From positions 1 to 35,532 of the IMG/VR virus record IMGVR_UViG_2703718856_000009: 35,532 nucleotides of DNA. One strand, 5' to 3'. The translations under genes were made by a program, and so were the position numbers. Shown here in pieces: positions 1,956-34,164 of this stretch (position 1 is the first letter of the stretch; every line of letters begins with the position of its first letter). A model generated the notes under the pieces. It saw nothing but the letters and a program-made list of their open reading frames with translations, was not told the origin of the DNA and did not search any database. The stretch comes from a virus (lineage: Duplodnaviria; Heunggongvirae; Uroviricota; Caudoviricetes).

Positions 1956-3004
1956 GAAATCGTCCCCAGTACCGCCAGTTCATTTTTTGCAATGGAGATA
2001 TTGTCCGCCGGTGCAAGCAACTGATGGCTGTATTCCCCGTTCGCACCGGAAATCGCTTCACTGATACGTGACACCTTCAGTTCTCCCTGCGGATAACCAT
2101 CACGCAGCAGGAACGAACGCAACTCGGCGGTAATGGCAGCCCGTATTTCCGGTGTGTCCGGCGTCACACGGATATGAAAATCCACTTTATGCGCCACCGG
2201 CCTGAATACATACAAATCAGAGCCTGCCACCGGGGCCAGTGGCCCGATATGTTGTCTTGCCGCCGTTTCCGTTGATTCTTCCGGAATGGGATTAATCAGG
2301 TCACTGCCGGCAATCATCACACCGACAGTCCCCGTTCCCATCCAGTGTCGGTATGTCCATGCGCGGGTAATGCCGGGCACTTCTTTAGCCCAGACGACAT
2401 AGTCCCCGTCAGCCCCGCCCTGAGGCGTCCAGTAATACCGCTCAATGACGCGGGCGCGCCACGTTTCCAGCTCTTCAGTATCAAATCCACCTGTCAGGGT
2501 ATCTGCCACGCCGGAAGACGGCAGACCATTCACCGGCGTGACCAGGATTAATGACGTACCGTCGTCAGCGTTACCGACCGCGCCTGCACTTGAGCAGGCG
2601 ATCGGCACGCGCAGGACACCACCGGTGCTGGTTGCATCGGCAGTTGCCGTGTACTGCACCAGGTCATCGCGCTGAATAACACTCCCGGCGGTCACCTTCA
2701 GGCCATCGCTGACACCTTCCCAGCGCATATACCCGCTGGCAGCCGTGGCCCCCTTGCGCGGACACCGTTTCATCGCAGCATGTCGCGCCAGCCAGGACTC
2801 ATCGCACAGGTCAGGCAGCATGTTCATTGCCAGATAATCGATGTAACCGTAAACCGTATGCAGCGCCGCCGCATACACCTTTGCCCGCACGTCTTCATCC
2901 ATGCGCCGGAGCGTGTCGCTGACGTCCAGCCTGGCGAATAAATCGTTACGGAGCATACTGATATTTTCTGCCAGCGTCGGGCGCTGAAATTCACTGTCCG
3001 CCAT
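1946..3004 (-). CDS. Baseplate J-like protein (Mu gp47-like)
   Basis: 352-aa ORF in baseplate position; call by size, synteny and sequence character. Confidence 0.8.
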
Positions 3005-20780: not shown

Positions 20781-21866
20781 ATGAAAGAAAGCCGCAGCAA
20801 GGTCATTCAATATAAACGTGCAGTCATCCCTAATTGCACAGCAACGCTTCAACAGATCATAGAATCTATAATTTCTGAAAATGGCGCAGCCTATAAAGTT
20901 AGCGCAAGAAGAGAACAGATTAACCCCTCCGATAGCAATAGTGGATTTAGAGTGGTTAACCGCAGCAGCACTTTCAAGACAGTGTTATTCGGGCAACTTA
21001 TTTTGTTTGAACAAGGTAAAAGCCAAACACTTATGACAATCGCTGATGATGTCAATTATTATGACATCAATGCTATAACATCGAAGCAAATTAAATTAGC
21101 CGAAGACGAAAAAATAAGTGAAGCTGAAAAACAAAAAATAACACGAGAATTTATTGATTCAATACTTTACTTTGGGATTCGTGATAATCATGTGATGATC
21201 GTCCAATCACCGGCTCTAAGGACTAAAGACATAGAAAGCCATCTTAATTGGTTAATCCATTCATTTAGCACTATTTTTAATGGTGACGACTTCCTTGTGC
21301 TTCAAGATAAACCAACTGAAGACACCATAAAAAAAATGCATGAAAGTCCAGTCAAGAAAATAAATTTCGGCAGTATCCCAATCAAAAATTCTGATTCTGA
21401 AGATGTAGTTAAAATAAATAATATAAGTAACACAAACGACCTCCCCACAACAATAAAAGAACAGGTCGAAAAAGTTAAGAAAATAAAATTCATGCCAACT
21501 GGTAAAGGTGGCGATATTATAAAAGCTGCTTTTGGCGAAGCATGGTTTAATAATTTACAACTGGAAGATTCTCTTGATGAATCCAATTTACAAGTTAATC
21601 TAGAAATAACCTATTTCCGCAAGACAAACAAAGATGGTCAACGTGTACTCGATACTTTAGCAACTTCACTCAGAAATATAGACGATGAAGATATTAGTAT
21701 AAACCTTCAAGGTGGTGGCATAATTAAAGGCAGTGATTTAAAACTATCCGGTAAAGTAAACGTCCAATATAACAATGGACTTATTGATGAAAATGATTTA
21801 TATTTACAAATGCACAAATGGCTGACTTCAAAGGTTCAAACTGGAGAAGTAAAAGTTAAAAACTAG
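20781..21866 (+). CDS. Hypothetical 361-aa soluble protein (AT-rich cassette gene 1)
   Basis: Long ORF with RBS; Lys/Asn/Ile-rich; no family recognised by eye. Confidence 0.8.
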   Translation: MKESRSKVIQYKRAVIPNCTATLQQIIESIISENGAAYKVSARREQINPSDSNSGFRVVNRSSTFKTVLFGQLILFEQGKSQTLMTIADDVNYYDINAITSKQIKLAEDEKISEAEKQKITREFIDSILYFGIRDNHVMIVQSPALRTKDIESHLNWLIHSFSTIFNGDDFLVLQDKPTEDTIKKMHESPVKKINFGSIPIKNSDSEDVVKINNISNTNDLPTTIKEQVEKVKKIKFMPTGKGGDIIKAAFGEAWFNNLQLEDSLDESNLQVNLEITYFRKTNKDGQRVLDTLATSLRNIDDEDISINLQGGGIIKGSDLKLSGKVNVQYNNGLIDENDLYLQMHKWLTSKVQTGEVKVKN

Positions 21867-21884
21867 AACCAACAGGAGGCGGAA

Positions 21885-22397
21885 ATGAGCTTCTTTAAAT
21901 TTATTATAAGATTCTTATCCGCCTTCGCTTTTGGGTTTGCAATATTTTACTTTGCATCTAGAAAAATTGACTTAAGTGGCATATCTACTCCATGGTCATT
22001 AATAACCTTATTAGCATTCCCTTTCAGTTATTGTATCGCAGCCTTTTTTAAAGTTTCTGAAGCCGACGAAAACACATCACTATCAGATAATGAACTAAGA
22101 AGATTACGACCGATAATTGATGCAAAAAAAAGACATCTTGGATTTCTTATCTTTTTTTATCTTATTGCTGCTTTTTCAGGAGCAATTGGTATGTTCGCTA
22201 TTTCCAGAGAGTCGATAGTTTATCTATATTTTATATCTGCTTGTGGAGGAGGCATTGCTGCTGCAATGTATTCTTTTTTCTTTATCAGCTCAATAAACAG
22301 CGAAATACAGAGATTTAAAAGCATCTTATTACACAGAGCTGAAGCGAATAAAAAAACGAAAGAATTTATAGACTCATTAAACAAAAAGGCGGATTGA
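21885..22397 (+). CDS. Hypothetical 170-aa membrane protein, about four TM segments (cassette gene 2)
   Basis: AGGAGG RBS 7 nt before the ATG; four hydrophobic stretches (FIIRFLSAFAFGFAIFYFA, LITLLAFPFSYCIAAFF, LGFLIFFYLIAAFSGAIGMFAI, LYFISACGGGIAAAMYSFFFI). Confidence 0.8.
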   Translation: MSFFKFIIRFLSAFAFGFAIFYFASRKIDLSGISTPWSLITLLAFPFSYCIAAFFKVSEADENTSLSDNELRRLRPIIDAKKRHLGFLIFFYLIAAFSGAIGMFAISRESIVYLYFISACGGGIAAAMYSFFFISSINSEIQRFKSILLHRAEANKKTKEFIDSLNKKAD

Positions 22398-27271: not shown

Positions 27272-27876
27272 GCGTTAGTTTCTCCACAGTCACGACACGC
27301 CACGGCGCCCGGAGCTGCACACTCGCGGGCGTCATTACTTTCTGAAATGCAAAAGATTTTGTAGACCAGTGCTGCATGCTCCTGCAGCTTCGAAATTGAG
27401 AGATACAGCTCGTCGTTAATTGCTGTCTTCTCATGCGGTTCCACCACACCGTCTTCGATTGCCGAACGAATCTGTCTGGAATAACTGCCAATCTGTTCAA
27501 TGACTTCCAGCAGGCGCTGGTTAATATCGGCGTTGTCCACATCCTCGACGTCAGGAAGAGACACAAAGACGCCATTTGCAGACTGCGCCACAGCGTCAGC
27601 AATGAAGTGAGTTCCACCAGCACGTTGCAAAATCATTGCCCATCCCAGCGGGAAAATCTGATCGCCATCGGCACGAAGGCGGTTAAATAATGCGTTTTCT
27701 GTTACATCCAGCCAGTCAGCTGCTTCAGCGTAACCACCCGGCAACGCTGCGATAGTTTTTCTGACAGCTTTCACGTACCACTCAGGCTGTTTTTCTACTT
27801 TCCAGTGATGCTTACCCACGGTTAGCCTCATCGTTCTGTGGTTTCTGTTAATCGATTTATCCATTAGATTTTTCAT
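27268..27876 (-). CDS. cII-like / YdaT-like regulatory protein
   Basis: Downstream of cro on the same strand; start taken at internal Met ([13 protein letters not shown]...); the ORF-track start at 27933 would overlap cro extensively. Confidence 0.55.
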
Positions 27877-28057
27877 AAAGCTCAGGTTTAAATGGCAACC
27901 GTCCGCAAGTTCTATATGCAGCTTCTGCTGCACGTCCTTTTGGAATTAACTGGCCCGGACGGTTTCGCCACTGATAAACGGCTTCAGTTGTTATGCCGAA
28001 AAAAGCAGCAACTTTCTCAATACTGCCGAAGTAGCTTTCGATATCGTCAGTTGTCAT
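27857..28057 (-). CDS. Cro-like repressor (small HTH protein)
   Basis: 66-aa ORF divergent from cI. Confidence 0.8.
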   Translation of the reverse strand: MTTDDIESYFGSIEKVAAFFGITTEAVYQWRNRPGQLIPKGRAAEAAYRTCGRLPFKPELYEKSNG

Positions 28058-28154
28058 ACGCCCTCCAAACTAAGTTTTATTAGATGCTAATTACAAATCT
28101 ATCTTTGGTCAATAAAAACTAAGATTACTTAGCAATTCAAGAAATGGTGCTCCT
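28058..28154. promoter_or_regulatory. Divergent cro/cI control region (OR-like operators with PR and PRM)
   Basis: 97-bp AT-rich intergenic region with palindrome CTAAGATTACTTAG (28119-28132) and related CTAAGTTTTATTAG (28070-28083). Confidence 0.6.
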
Positions 28155-28781
28155 ATGGAAACGGTTGGTCAGCGTATAAAAGCTCTGAGAAGAGTTACCG
28201 GAACGTCCCAGAAAGAATTGGGTAAATTTTGTGGAGTAAGCGACGTTGCTGTGGGGTACTGGGAGAAAGACATCAATACCCCTGGTGGGGAGGCACTTTC
28301 GAAATTAGCGAAGTTCTTCAATACGTCAATAGATTACATTCTTTATGGTGCTGAGTTTGAAGGCAAACTCGTCACAAACATGCGCAGAGTTCCTGTAATA
28401 TCGTGGGTTCAGGCTGGGCAGTTTACTGAGTGCAGGGCAGCAGAAGTGTTTAGTGAAGTGGACAAGTGGGTAGATACATCATTAAAGGTTGGTGATAACT
28501 CATTTGCATTAGAGGTTAAAGGTGACTCCATGACTAACCCTAATGGCCTCCCAACAATACCAGAAGGCGCAACAGTGATTGTAGATCCAGATGCAGAACC
28601 TCGTCATGGAAAAATAGTCATCGCTCGACTTGATGGAACAAACGAAGCTACAGTAAAAAAATTAGTCATCGATGGCCCTCAAAAGTTTTTAGTGCCATTA
28701 AATCCTCGGTATCCCAACATCCCTATCAATGGTAATTGCCTTATCATTGGTGTAGTCAAAGGAGTTCAATACGAACTCTAA
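28155..28781 (+). CDS. CI-type repressor (HTH plus LexA-like S24 peptidase domain)
   Basis: 208 aa; N-terminal HTH (..VTGTSQKELGKFCGVSDVAVGYWEK..), C-terminal S24-like region with GDSM and a downstream Lys. Confidence 0.9.
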   Translation: METVGQRIKALRRVTGTSQKELGKFCGVSDVAVGYWEKDINTPGGEALSKLAKFFNTSIDYILYGAEFEGKLVTNMRRVPVISWVQAGQFTECRAAEVFSEVDKWVDTSLKVGDNSFALEVKGDSMTNPNGLPTIPEGATVIVDPDAEPRHGKIVIARLDGTNEATVKKLVIDGPQKFLVPLNPRYPNIPINGNCLIIGVVKGVQYEL

Positions 28782-28789
28782 GACCTCTC

Positions 28790-28865
28790 TTCTCTAACTA
28801 AGGCACCGAACTAAGAAAAGTTTGGTGTTTTCTCTTGCCATAATAACTAAGTTAAGTTAGATTTT
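28790..28865. promoter_or_regulatory. Candidate OL/PL-like operator region
   Basis: CTAAG-containing operator-like repeats (28798-28815, 28847-28860) just downstream of cI. Confidence 0.3.
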
Positions 28866-29028
28866 ATATCAAAGATAACGAACAGGCAGGACGCCCACGA
28901 AGTAGCCGCCTGGGGCATATGAAGTCCAGGATGATTCGTTAGCAACAAAAAAGCGCCCTACAGGACGCTTAGCTCTTTAACAATCTGGTCCCCATCAACA
29001 AGTAACTGATAACTTGAGGAGATGTGAA

Positions 29029-29235
29029 ATGCACAAAACAGAACCCAAAATCGTCGCGCCTGGCTACACAGATGAGGAAATTTATGAGTGGATGACAAAG
29101 AAGCTGGCAGCTATAAACCAGCTTCGTGAAGTGCTGTCTTATCGACAGGAAACAATAGACTCCTTAAAAAAACTGGATCAGGAAATCACGGTTTTATCAC
29201 AGGATGTTACTTTAGATATTGTGCAGACAAATTAG
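29029..29235 (+). CDS. Hypothetical 68-aa protein (coiled-coil-like)
   Basis: ATG at 29029 with GAGGA RBS 9 nt upstream; 3' end overlaps the convergent 144-aa gene by 29 nt. Confidence 0.5.
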   Translation: MHKTEPKIVAPGYTDEEIYEWMTKKLAAINQLREVLSYRQETIDSLKKLDQEITVLSQDVTLDIVQTN

Positions 29236-29641
29236 GATCCCATTCATTTTCGTCAAAATCATCAAAGTGATGAATTTGTGATCTCCAGTCTCGATAATCT
29301 AAAAATTTCTGGGCGGTTACGCTTATTTTATCAAGTGTGAGTTCATCCTGAATTGAAAGAAGAAGTTCATCAAATTTCATCTCATTAATCTGTTTTGGCA
29401 TCCAGTGATGCTTCATCAGAATAAGGTGAACCAGAGCCTTTTTCCCATTCAACTGATTATAGGGAGTGCCGAATTTCTTCCGGTGCTCATGTAAGACAAG
29501 GTCCAAAAGAGTAAGTAATGTTGCCCTTGATTCAACTTTGCTTATTTCGACTGATGACACTACCCCACTGATTTCAATGCCCCGATACTTTCCAACATTT
29601 TCACAGTGGGATTTGTACAGCGTATAGATATTACCGGACAT
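29207..29641 (-). CDS. Hypothetical 144-aa protein (AT-rich moron opposite to early-left transcription)
   Basis: AAGGA RBS 7-8 nt before the ATG (29639-29641); direct repeats GTTGTTGGGGA(A)TAAC twice (29657-29674, 29690-29708) in its upstream region. Confidence 0.6.
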   Translation of the reverse strand: MSGNIYTLYKSHCENVGKYRGIEISGVVSSVEISKVESRATLLTLLDLVLHEHRKKFGTPYNQLNGKKALVHLILMKHHWMPKQINEMKFDELLLSIQDELTLDKISVTAQKFLDYRDWRSQIHHFDDFDENEWDPNLSAQYLK

Positions 29642-29789
29642 TTCTTTTCCTTTTGCGTTGTTGGGGATAACCAGATTAACCGAATCCTTGTTGTTGGGGA
29701 ATAACTAGGTCCACCTCGCCTGATGTGGCTAAAAGCAGGCACATAACAGCTAAGTATTTTCAACCAGAGAGAATCCTTAGCGTTGTGGT

Positions 29790-30109
29790 GAATGCGGCTC
29801 AGCGCACGCGGGTTAAGGTTGAGGCTGACAGTCGACCTTCTGTGGATACCCACCCGCCTGGTGTGCAACCTTCGCCAGGCACCGGGAGGCACCCGGCACC
29901 ACAACTTTATGCTGTGTGTAGTCCTGGCGGTACCAGCTTGTACCCTTGCTTCCGGCTGGTACCGTCCTTTTTACAAAACAGAGAAGAGCATCACCGGACG
30001 ACGGGCTCATAACCCAATCCATCCGGGCGGCAGTCACCGCAGGTGTTCTTCTCTGTTTTGTGGAGAAACTAACCGACCTTGCAGGGTCGATATGATGAGG
30101 AGCAGCAAA
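29790..30109 (+). ncRNA. Candidate structured RNA / regulatory leader upstream of the yfdP-like gene
   Basis: GC-rich with several perfect hairpins, including a 13-bp long-range stem (29974-29986 with 30048-60); the ORF-track translation across it is not protein-like. Confidence 0.3.
29928..29972 (+). terminator. Intrinsic terminator inside the leader
   Basis: Perfect 10-bp stem CGGTACCAGC / GCTGGTACCG with a 17-nt loop, followed by TCCTTTTT. Confidence 0.6.
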
Positions 30110-30472
30110 ATGGCTAGCGAACGCAGTACTGATGTGCAGGCATTTATCGGGGAGCTGGACGGCGGCGTATTTGAAACCAAAATCGGCGCAGTTCTCAGTG
30201 AAGTCGCTTCCGGTGTGATGAACACGAAAACCAAAGGTAAGGTCTCGCTCAACCTAGAAATCGAACCGTTTGATGAGAACCGAGTGAAAATCAAACACAA
30301 ACTCTCATATGTTCGCCCGACTAACCGCGGGAAAATTTCCGAAGAAGACACCACCGAAACGCCGATGTATGTCAATCGCGGTGGTCGCCTGACTATTCTG
30401 CAGGAAGACCAGGGACAGTTGCTGACTCTTGCCGGTGAACCTGACGGAAAACTCCGCGCAGCAGGTCGTTAA
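30110..30472 (+). CDS. yfdP: YfdP-like prophage protein (120 aa)
   Basis: Start at ATG 30110 (MASERSTDVQ...) with GAGGAG RBS; the ORF-track upstream extension is non-coding; same length as K-12 CPS-53 YfdP. Confidence 0.65.
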   Translation: MASERSTDVQAFIGELDGGVFETKIGAVLSEVASGVMNTKTKGKVSLNLEIEPFDENRVKIKHKLSYVRPTNRGKISEEDTTETPMYVNRGGRLTILQEDQGQLLTLAGEPDGKLRAAGR

Positions 30473-32684: not shown

Positions 32685-33034
32685 TGGAGCCATACAGCCT
32701 CACACTCGATGAGGCCTGTCATTTTCTCAAGATATCCAGACCGACTGCCATTAACTGGATACGCACAGGGCGTCTTCAGGCAACACGCAAAGATCCCACT
32801 AAGAATAAATCTCCTTACCTCACAACACGACAAGCCTGCATTGCGGCTCTTCAGTCTCCGCTGCATACTGTCCAGGTGAGCGCGGGTGATGGCATAACAG
32901 AGGAAAGAAAATGTCACTCTTCCGCAGAGGTGAAATATGGTACGCCAGTTTCACATTGCCGAACGGTAAAAGATTTAAACAGTCTCTTGGAACAAAGGAC
33001 AAAAGGCAGGCGACAGAACTCCATGACAAGCTAA
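32684..33034 (+). CDS. xis: Excisionase (P22 Xis-like)
   Basis: Internal ATG at 32684 with AAGAGGTGA RBS; [36 protein letters not shown]...; overlaps the int start. Confidence 0.8.
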
Positions 33035-34074
33035 AGGCTGAAGCATGGCGGGTCAGCAAACTTGGTGAAATACCTGATATAACGTTCGAGGAAGCGTGTG
33101 TCAGGTGGCTTGAAGAGAAAGCACATAAAAAATCACTGGACGATGACAAAAGCCGGATCGGATTCTGGCTTCAACATTTCGCAGGAATGCAACTAAGAGA
33201 CATTACTGAATCAAAAATTTATTCAGCAATGCAGAAAATGACGAACCGGCGTCATGAGGAAAACTGGAAACTCAGGGCAGAAGCATGCAGAAAAAAAGGG
33301 AAACCTGTTCCAGAATACACGCCAAAACCAGCGTCCGTTGCAACGAAGGCTACGCATCTTTCATTTATAAAGGCCCTACTAAGAGCCGCAGAGCGTGAAT
33401 GGAAAATGCTGGATAAGGCACCAATTATTAAAGTGCCTCAACCAAAGAATAAACGGATCCGCTGGCTGGAGCCCCATGAAGCACAAAGGCTGATTGATGA
33501 ATGTCCGGAGCCATTAAAGTCTGTTGTTGAATTTGCACTGGCAACAGGCTTAAGACGCTCGAACATCATCAACCTTGAATGGCAACAAATAGATATGCAG
33601 CGCCGGGTGGCATGGATAAACCCGGAAGAGAGTAAATCAAACCGCGCAATTGGCGTTGCGCTGAATGATACTGCATGTCGCGTATTGAAAAAACAAATCG
33701 GGAATCATCACCGTTGGGTATTTGTGTACAAGGAAAGCTGTACCAAACCAGACGGAACGAAAGCGCCAACAGTAAGGAAGATGCGGTATGACGCAAACAC
33801 AGCCTGGAAAGCGGCGCTGAGACGGGCTGGTATTGATGATTTCAGATTTCACGACTTGAGACACACCTGGGCAAGTTGGCTGGTTCAAGCCGGAGTCCCG
33901 TTGTCAGTGTTACAGGAAATGGGAGGCTGGGAGTCTATCGAAATGGTTCGTCGATATGCTCACCTTGCACCTAATCACCTTACCGAACACGCACGGCAAA
34001 TAGACTCGATCCTGAACCCATCGGTCCCAAATTTGTCCCAGTCAAAAAATAAGGAAGGTACTAATGATGTGTAA
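32911..34074 (+). CDS. int: Tyrosine integrase, P22 Int-like
   Basis: 387 aa; [34 protein letters not shown]...; C-terminal catalytic region [17 protein letters not shown]...; 15 bp from the tRNA 3' end. Confidence 0.95.
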
Positions 34075-34088
34075 CTTATTGATTTAAA

Positions 34089-34164
34089 TGGTGCCGATAA
34101 TAGGAGTCGAACCTACGACCTTCGCATTACGAATGCGCTGCTCTACCAACTGAGCTATATCGGC
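34089..34164 (-). tRNA. thrW: tRNA-Thr (anticodon CGU)
   Basis: Reverse complement reads GCCGATATAGCTCAGTTGGTAGAGCAGCGCATTCGTAATGCGAAGGTCGTAGGTTCGACTCCTATTATCGGCACCA, with cloverleaf features, CGT anticodon and CCA end. Confidence 0.95.

Follow-up and report, generated by a model that had tools for sequence, protein, structure and literature searches.

Whether two genes that run into each other from opposite strands of a prophage belong together, and what such a pair could do for its phage, is the question raised by a short AT-rich region in the DNA analyzed here, positions 1 to 35,532 of the IMG/VR virus record IMGVR_UViG_2703718856_000009 (this whole stretch of 35,532 nucleotides is called the window). 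The window is an SfV/SfIV-like prophage integrated at tRNA-Thr, and its positions 28782-30110 share 99.8% identity with Escherichia phage Kati and 98% with Shigella phage SfIV. After the repressor gene cI (28155-28781) and before the early-left genes YfdP/YfdQ/YfdR, a plus-strand gene for a protein of 68 amino acids (aa) converges with a minus-strand gene for a protein of 144 aa, and the two coding regions overlap by 29 bp at their 3' ends. An earlier note on this DNA had described this arrangement, which is confirmed by our analysis; it had also held that neither protein was recognizable, which was wrong, as the 68-aa protein is YdfC-like (phrog_1744) and the 144-aa protein belongs to the ECs1072 family (NF033230). 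Both genes are real, and together they form a conserved, portable two-gene module with a fixed orientation rule. As far as our searches show, this conserved convergent-overlap architecture has not been described before.

The YdfC-like/ECs1072-family pair is conserved across prophages

The evidence for a module comes from the loci of distant ECs1072 homologs, at which the opposite strand was searched with a hidden Markov model (HMM) built from ten partner sequences. At 27 of the 40 loci (18 distinct lineages), a YdfC-like open reading frame (ORF) runs towards the ECs1072-family gene and extends into its 3' end, and the paired lineages reach down to ~25% identity. Twelve of the 27 paired loci lay outside the set used for the HMM (L010, L011, L024-L027 and L040-L045), with E-values from 3e-7 to 1e-26. 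The overlaps measure 29, 32, 62, 64, 71, 74, 86, 95, 194 or 224-227 bp; exactly 29 bp is seen again in L024 and L027, and 32 bp in L040. The L024 ECs1072 protein shares only ~29-34% identity with that of the window, and because the 29 bp recur exactly in such distant homologous pairs, the overlap is more than chance.

The pair occupies three kinds of position. It is found in the cI/PL slot in the window and in E. albertii, Yersinia, Pectobacterium, Proteus and Morganella, in a slot between Q and holin genes in Serratia (L012), Salmonella phage ST64B and Klebsiella phage KPP5665-2, and in the P2-like Cox-GpA early operon of Pantoea prophages. In all three contexts, the YdfC-like gene has the direction of the lytic operon, and the ECs1072 gene opposes it. 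As this pairing is conserved across distant relatives and at three positions, coupling of some form, antisense and/or protein-level, is very likely, and the coupling that had been suspected from the overlap gains support. The full-length ECs1072-family genes of ST64B (L044, 2345-2779, plus strand) and KPP5665-2 (L045, 2345-2788, plus strand) are unannotated in GenBank; they match the family HMM with E ~1e-42, lie antisense between a Q-like gene and the holin gene, and converge with the YdfC-like Sb50 (ST64B) and GP45 (KPP5665-2).

The 68-aa gene starts with the ATG at 29029 (not 29030), 7 nt downstream of a Shine-Dalgarno sequence (GAGGAG, 29016-29021). Its product matches phrog_1744 over the full length (residues 1-68 of 68, E 6e-35) and, by tblastn, shows 39-41% identity over residues 1-66 to coliphage proteins annotated as ydfC or YdfC family, so that length, full-length profile match and likeness to annotated YdfC all place it in this family. 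The same holds for its promoter-proximal position in an early operon, as it is the first ORF past a PL-like promoter. The protein is acidic and hydrophilic, with an isoelectric point of 4.8, a grand average of hydropathy (GRAVY) of -0.5 and no membrane segment; its N-terminus carries a short EP..P.YTDEE..EW motif, and a coiled coil comes next. Among the YdfC-like partners, this motif takes the form (R/T)EP-x-(I/F)-x3-4-(Y/L)-(T/S)-x2-(E/Q)-L-x2-W-(M/L), again followed by a coiled coil, and P6 and W21 are invariant. A PDB sequence-profile search with the partner family returned designed coiled coils only, which is a compositional match, and 15 YdfC-like partners had no match in Pfam or PADLOC. 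YdfC itself, encoded near the promoter of the Qin dicBF operon, is described as a protein of uncharacterized function (PMC5069750), and our literature search found no study of its function.

The 144-aa protein matches NF033230, a model named 'ECs1072 family phage-associated protein', with 157.8 bits at a cut-off of 70, residues 4-144 aligning with profile positions 2-142 of 142, and it matches phrog_5286 with E 1.5e-90. A HMMER search of 1.84 billion representative proteins gave 76 clusters at 50% identity, nearly all of 145-155 aa; named members come from Escherichia, Salmonella, Yersinia, Pectobacterium, Proteus, Morganella and Pantoea, and a Serratia homolog turned up in a scan of genome contigs that yielded three loci in all. 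Positions L50, R54, L64, G66, A69, H72 and W134 are near-invariant in the family. An AlphaFold (AF2) model based on a 47-sequence alignment is all-helical (predicted local distance difference test score, pLDDT, 94.6; predicted template modeling score, pTM, 0.88), and GRAVY values of -0.47 and -0.50 characterize the two proteins of the pair. With the model, Foldseek found nothing in BFVD, a PDB sequence-profile search with the family found nothing, and 47 family members had no match in Pfam or PADLOC. Scattered low-Z matches to the helical bundles of HD, HD-GYP and HDOD proteins were considered, and the family was not called an HD domain because the conserved H..HD..D signature is absent. The fold is thus predicted with confidence, without a convincing structural or profile relative, and nothing in the model points to an enzyme. 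The profile and structure searches that the earlier note had proposed gave two family names; Pfam, NCBIfam, PHROGs and PADLOC gave no function for either window protein, and no convincing structural relative emerged. No DNA- or RNA-binding domain was detected in the proteins of the pair. We found no functional study of ECs1072 in the literature, but it was scored as a growth-phase-regulated transcript in a microarray analysis of an uninduced O157 Sakai culture (PMC2241611).

The palindrome TGGGATCCCA in the GATCCCATTC region (29236-29245) encodes W-D-P on both strands: on one strand, it specifies the invariant C-terminal EWDP of ECs1072 proteins, and on the other the FPWDP tail of the Serratia-, ST64B- and Klebsiella-type partners. 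In the window, the stop codon TAG of the 68-aa gene (29233-29235) lies directly at the palindrome.

A common frame for variable cargo and its predicted transcription signals

In SfV-like phages, the pair is one of several cargos that are framed by a leader, an inverted repeat and a terminator. The cassette (28941-29710) has a GC content of 39.9% compared with 51.4% for the window (40.7% for 28782-29720) and stands at the 5.7th percentile of GC among the 770-bp windows of this DNA. The region had been noted as visibly AT-rich, and so it is, but moderately; the GC minimum of the window (~0.32) lies elsewhere, in a second and more AT-rich island at ~20.8-22.4 kb (20781-22397, plus strand). That island holds two plus-strand ORFs (361 and 170 aa) amid minus-strand genes; neither matched Pfam or PADLOC, and the island is a candidate for another accessory cassette.

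To the left, a 60-bp element is kept in all SfV-like relatives, whatever their repressor type, and to the right the flank is common from 29711 onwards. Among 5426 complete E. coli genomes, 1556 contain the left element at least, and the whole pair is found in 407. The element could be a nut/put-like site; the put/nut-like fold of 28877-28938 is not distinctive (z -1.3). Between the same flanks, SfV, SfII, mEp460, PhiR29 and ST64B have different cargo or none: orf33 in SfV (98 aa, plus strand), a 122-aa helix-turn-helix (HTH) protein in mEp460 (plus strand), a 242-aa gene in PhiR29_1 (minus strand) and none annotated in ST64B. The moron-like features of presence or absence among close relatives, deviating GC (0.40 vs 0.51) and an own terminator are all found here, and the literature that we searched contained no functional work on the slot in SfV-like phages. 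The slot next to cI also accumulates several opposite-strand cargos, as indicated by two further loci: a SieB-family gene (L013, 4827-5321, plus strand) stands beside the Yersinia ECs1072 homolog in the same cI-proximal slot, and a gene for a 157-aa membrane protein (L028, 4029-4502, plus strand), which has the same repeat-bearing leader, adjoins an ECs1072 homolog.

The tandem direct repeats that had been reported upstream of the 144-aa gene do exist and are direct, but they lie 33 bp apart and not head-to-tail. The copies of GTTGTTGGGGA(A)TAAC are GTTGTTGGGGATAAC at 29657-29671 and GTTGTTGGGGAATAAC at 29690-29705, and a third, inverted copy with one mismatch is found at 28989-28998. By number alone, the 10-mer is not above chance (5 found vs 3.1 expected in the window with one mismatch allowed); the repeats are significant because the whole leader is kept before four different cargo genes, namely the window gene, the distant ECs1072 homolog of L024, the 242-aa gene of PhiR29_1 and the cargo of L028, which consists of a small ORF plus the 157-aa membrane protein. 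In these four, the leader, ending in ...CCACATCAGGCGAGGTGGACCTGGTTATTCCCCAACAACAAGGATTCGGTTAATCTGGTTATCCCCAACAAC, stops 10-15 nt upstream of the start codon (15 nt in the window). The proximal repeat copy (29658-29677) is at the same time one arm of a ~20-bp inverted repeat, the other arm of which lies in the trailer just before the minus-strand terminator. This bracket surrounds all four cargos, and also that of L008, with the sequence changed on both arms; the 20-bp form is present in the window, L004, L008, L024, L027 and L028, and the mosaic breakpoints between the window and PhiR29_1 (28988 and 29657) fall at its arms. In modeled transcripts of six cassettes, a duplex between the 5' and 3' untranslated regions (UTRs) was predicted at a probability of ~1. 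The bracket could work at the DNA level, where it would mark a boundary for cassette exchange, or at the RNA level, where a stalk could stabilize the transcript or be processed by RNase III. In contexts of other types than SfV (Serratia, ST64B, Pantoea), comparable repeats appear to be weak, short, AT-rich or missing. An invertible segment was also considered and rejected, as no invertase gene lies in the vicinity and all loci show one and the same orientation.

The transcription signals bear directly on how the pair could be expressed. Operator-like direct repeats at 28797-28870 recur in the OR region between cro and cI (28068-28132), and by analogy with lambdoid immunity regions we infer that 28797-28870 is OL/PL; this assignment is based on pairwise repeats with OR, as a search with a strict operator consensus was not above chance. 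Because the putative OL/PL precedes the pair, the 68-aa gene would be the first early-left ORF and would lie outside the cI transcript. The terminator of the minus-strand cargo transcript lies past the entire 68-aa gene and is kept behind different cargos, and the first convincing plus-strand terminator (hairpin 29925-29972) lies past the 144-aa gene. As each terminator is thus located past the opposite gene, the predicted transcripts are complementary over ~700 nt. All features are listed in Table 1.

Table 1. Positions of the gene pair, its cassette frame and neighboring features in the window.
Feature	Position	Strand	Remarks
Cro-like gene	27857-28057	-	
cI	28155-28781	+	HTH_3 plus Peptidase_S24
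OL-like operator repeats (AACTAAG-N-TTAG type)	28797-28870	+	overlap PL-like promoter
PL-like promoter TTGCCA-17-TAGATT	28835-28863	+	promoter scan
60-bp left element	28877-28938	+	5' leader of presumed PL transcript; blastn breakpoints
Intrinsic terminator of minus-strand cargo transcript	28943-28970	-	AAGCGTCCTGTAGGGCGCTT plus T-run; hairpin 28970-28951
Trailer arm of inverted repeat	28982-29002	.	AATCTGGTCCCCATCAACAAG; just before minus-strand terminator
68-aa YdfC-like gene	29029-29235	+	same direction as cI and early-left operon
3' overlap of both coding regions	29207-29235	.	29 bp
144-aa ECs1072-family gene	29207-29641	-	opposed to surrounding operon
Conserved leader with two direct repeats	29657-29710	-	mosaic breakpoints 29657, 29711
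STnc100/PasD-like small RNA element	29752-29975	+	Rfam RF02076; ends in hairpin 29925-29972
YfdP-like gene	30110-30472	+	early-left; followed by YfdQ/DUF2303 and then YfdR-like HD protein, both +
Integrase	32911-34074		
tRNA-Thr(CGT)	34089-34164	-	host aldehyde-dehydrogenase-family gene beyond

Upstream of yfdP, and divergent from the 144-aa gene, the leader contains an element that matches Rfam RF02076 over its full length with 42.4 bits (E 6e-8). As this score is below the gathering threshold of 47, the element is best called STnc100/PasD-like. Its terminal hairpin is also a weak DicF match, and the plus-strand fold of 29711-30110 has a z of -6.8. In KPP5665-2 (L045), a bona fide STnc100 (108 bits; 2028-2223, minus strand) takes the corresponding place, and the order there is Q, the YdfC-like GP45, the ECs1072 homolog on the opposite strand, STnc100 and holin; a DicF-like match in L024 (1987-2035, minus strand) is placed likewise. 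The small RNA (sRNA) may thus be a third member of the module, echoing the order ydfC-dicF-dicB in Qin. Directly past the STnc100-like terminator and ~50 nt before the yfdP start, there is a long hairpin (29973-30061, plus strand) with 25-nt arms, 84% complementarity and a 39-nt loop region. Several phage records annotate a 226-aa 'YfdP' (29792-30472, plus strand) that starts in this GC-rich RNA region; the conserved YfdP is the 120-aa form that starts at 30110, and the N-terminal extension, which overlaps the STnc100-like element, looks non-coding.

Known systems and possible functions of the pair

Among known systems, a close counterpart of the 68-aa protein is YdfC of the Qin prophage, which is 41% identical over 66 residues, shares the motif EP.I.AP.YTD(D/E)E.YEWM followed by a coiled coil, and is likewise encoded promoter-proximally in a repressor-controlled early operon (ydfA-ydfB-ydfC-dicF-dicB). 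A structured sRNA element lies downstream in both cases, DicF in Qin and the STnc100-like element in the window, but Qin has no ECs1072-family gene between ydfC and the sRNA. For the ECs1072 family (NF033230, phrog_5286), there is only a name, and its description includes no function, structure, partner or convergent YdfC-like gene.

Like lambda rexAB, P22 sieB/esc and BTP1 BstA/aba, the pair is located next to the repressor and is variable among related phages, and the logic that we propose for the pair, a lysogen-expressed effector with a means by which the phage spares itself, follows these exclusion genes, some of which come with self-immunity. However, the pair has no sequence or profile similarity to them, the 144-aa protein is small and soluble, and the proposed antidote would be a separate convergent gene, unlike esc (an internal start) and aba (a DNA element). 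Neither homology to RexA or RexB nor a polytopic membrane protein of the RexB kind was found with Pfam, PADLOC and PHROG, and the model is soluble and all-helical. Furthermore, Rex genes are co-transcribed with cI from PRM, on the same strand and upstream of OL/PL; this is not the arrangement here, because the 144-aa gene is read from the other strand and the pair is downstream of the PL-like promoter and the operators. The earlier comparison with the rexAB region therefore stands as far as a variable accessory-gene slot by the repressor is concerned, but the pair comes after the PL-like promoter and outside the cI unit, and the analogy is one of position only. SieB (PF14163), BstA and the PADLOC-DB models had no match among the window proteins or the 47 family members, so that no homology in either set supports a defence role.

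The suggestion of a toxin/antitoxin (TA)-like pair finds no support as far as the classical architectures are concerned. There is no co-directional bicistronic operon with recognizable toxin or antitoxin folds as in type II systems, nor a small hydrophobic toxin peptide with a non-coding antisense RNA as in type I systems; here, the antisense partner of the gene for the acidic, hydrophilic 68-aa protein encodes a conserved 144-aa protein. Similar in layout are the convergent switches of coliphage 186 (pR/pL), P2 (Pe/Pc), pCF10 (prgQ/prgX) and lambda (cII/oop), in which face-to-face units with overlapping RNAs permit either-or expression, as could be the case for the pair. Those switches, however, are core regulatory circuits with mapped promoters, whereas in the pair both units encode uncharacterized proteins, the overlap covers whole genes, and the one candidate promoter, the PL-like site, is a prediction. 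With lambdoid morons, the pair shares presence or absence among relatives, lower GC, an own terminator and an orientation suited to expression independent of the flanking operon, but it has two genes on opposite strands and a 20-bp inverted-repeat bracket. By sequence, the two proteins belong to the YdfC and ECs1072 families, and the pair is a prophage accessory module that, the promoter aside, fits the moron concept.

Our preferred, still tentative reading, whose chances we would put somewhat short of even, is that the module comprises a lysogen-phase effector and a lytic-phase partner that are coupled by mutual antisense transcription, possibly for exclusion with self-immunity; expression timing, protein-protein antagonism and a defence function are all conjectural parts of it. 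The region would be a portable accessory module of the moron type with two functionally coupled genes. The ECs1072 protein, small, all-helical and non-enzymatic-looking, would be the lysogen-phase product, read against the lytic operon; its orientation, its own terminator and the O157 Sakai transcript (PMC2241611) indirectly suggest expression in the lysogen. The YdfC-like protein, as the product of the first ORF past the PL-like promoter, would be made only after derepression, and mutual antisense could enforce either-or expression via transcriptional interference and double-stranded RNA. The YdfC-like protein would then be a lytic-phase antagonist or partner of the ECs1072 protein, most likely providing self-immunity against a prophage-encoded exclusion or abortive-infection-type effector. 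We favor such an effector with lytic self-immunity because prophages keep exclusion genes in this neighborhood, as with the SieB-family gene beside the Yersinia homolog. In lambda, Rex occupies a comparable position. BstA, too, is located in a comparable position near the repressor (PMC8585504).

Several observations weigh against this reading. The main gap is the promoter of the 144-aa gene, for which no sigma-70 consensus was found on the minus strand at 29642-29800; the Proteus homolog has a promoter-like TTGCCA-16-TATTCT with TG. The ECs1072 gene of L008 (one lineage) has no partner, in one clade (P0107, 12 loci) the convergent position is taken by another conserved ORF ('MNVTTE...'), and the true YdfC in the ydfABC-dicF-dicB operon (L019) has no ECs1072 neighbor. 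The identity matrices of the two proteins correlate over 18 pairs (r 0.83, Mantel p ~2e-4; r 0.55 below 60% identity), but any two tightly linked genes would be expected to diverge together; what deserves note is that the linkage has survived in genomes that otherwise recombine freely. The lack of a YdfC-like partner in L008 and the P0107 clade, the default co-divergence of linked genes, and the occurrence of the same leader, inverted repeat and terminator frame around unrelated single cargos would all suit an explanation without any protein-level coupling, in which the ECs1072 gene serves on its own, for lysogenic conversion or as a moron, and tends to be found after a small promoter-proximal gene that is common, and overlap and pairing reflect a shared cassette history together with the need to place a terminator. 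We regard this as rather unlikely, though of some weight: the pair has moved jointly into three unrelated slots with different flanks each, the overlap is kept in 18 of 18 lineages, including exactly 29 bp at ~30% identity, and phage mosaicism normally breaks such linkage.

The roles could also be reversed, so that leaked YdfC-like protein is harmful and the ECs1072 protein and/or the antisense 3' UTR neutralizes it until induction, in the manner of a guard or antitoxin. The conserved pairing would agree with this, as would the location of YdfC homologs in the toxic dicBF operon (PMC5069750) and a predicted minus-strand transcript that would be antisense to the entire 68-aa gene before it reaches its terminator. 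We nevertheless consider it improbable, as YdfC is widespread without an ECs1072 gene, the literature search found no report of YdfC toxicity, the 68-aa protein is hydrophilic and acidic without a membrane segment, and neither type I nor type II TA systems have this architecture. Still less probable is an accessory of the lysis-lysogeny circuit, in which the ECs1072 protein or transcript damps early-left or late transcription and the YdfC-like protein relieves the damping. Its position directly past the PL-like promoter in the window and past Q or Cox elsewhere, and the STnc100/DicF-like sRNA that the window and L045 have in corresponding places, speak for such a role, but a module that is present or absent among near-identical phages is not core, and the lack of a detectable nucleic acid-binding domain in the two proteins argues in the same direction. 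Finally, the 68-aa ORF might be untranslated in the window and be no more than the reverse complement of the 3' UTR in the 144-aa mRNA. The ORF is frameshifted in E. albertii L009, and many database variants diverge past residue ~48; against this stand the strong Shine-Dalgarno sequence, a protein-level likeness to YdfC that spans 66 residues, an N-terminal motif that is kept in all lineages, and an intact E. albertii-type copy in L027, which together make this explanation very unlikely.

Significance for prophage accessory genes

The finding extends beyond the window, as the cassette also occurs in Shigella serotype-converting phages and in Salmonella, and relatives are found in Yersinia, Serratia, Klebsiella, Proteus, Pantoea and Pectobacterium prophages. 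Both genes are still annotated as hypothetical, and the ECs1072-family gene lacks any annotation in ST64B and KPP5665-2. Their recognition as one conserved module gives YdfC, a long-standing y-gene of E. coli K-12, a concrete candidate partner. The convergent-overlap design and the bracketed cassette frame bear on the exchange of accessory genes and on how such genes are kept silent or active in the correct phase, and the pair may have a lysogen-phase function that includes its own control, in a slot known for exclusion genes. In its most far-reaching form, which we consider doubtful, the proposal would be a widespread, previously unrecognized system in which effector and antidote are mutually antisense, 3'-overlapping genes, armed in lysogeny and self-disarming on induction, and in which the cargos of SfV-like phages travel in exchangeable cassettes with the 20-bp inverted repeat as a 5'-3' RNA stalk or recombination site. 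If this were true, orphan YdfC genes such as that of Qin would be stand-alone counter-defence genes.

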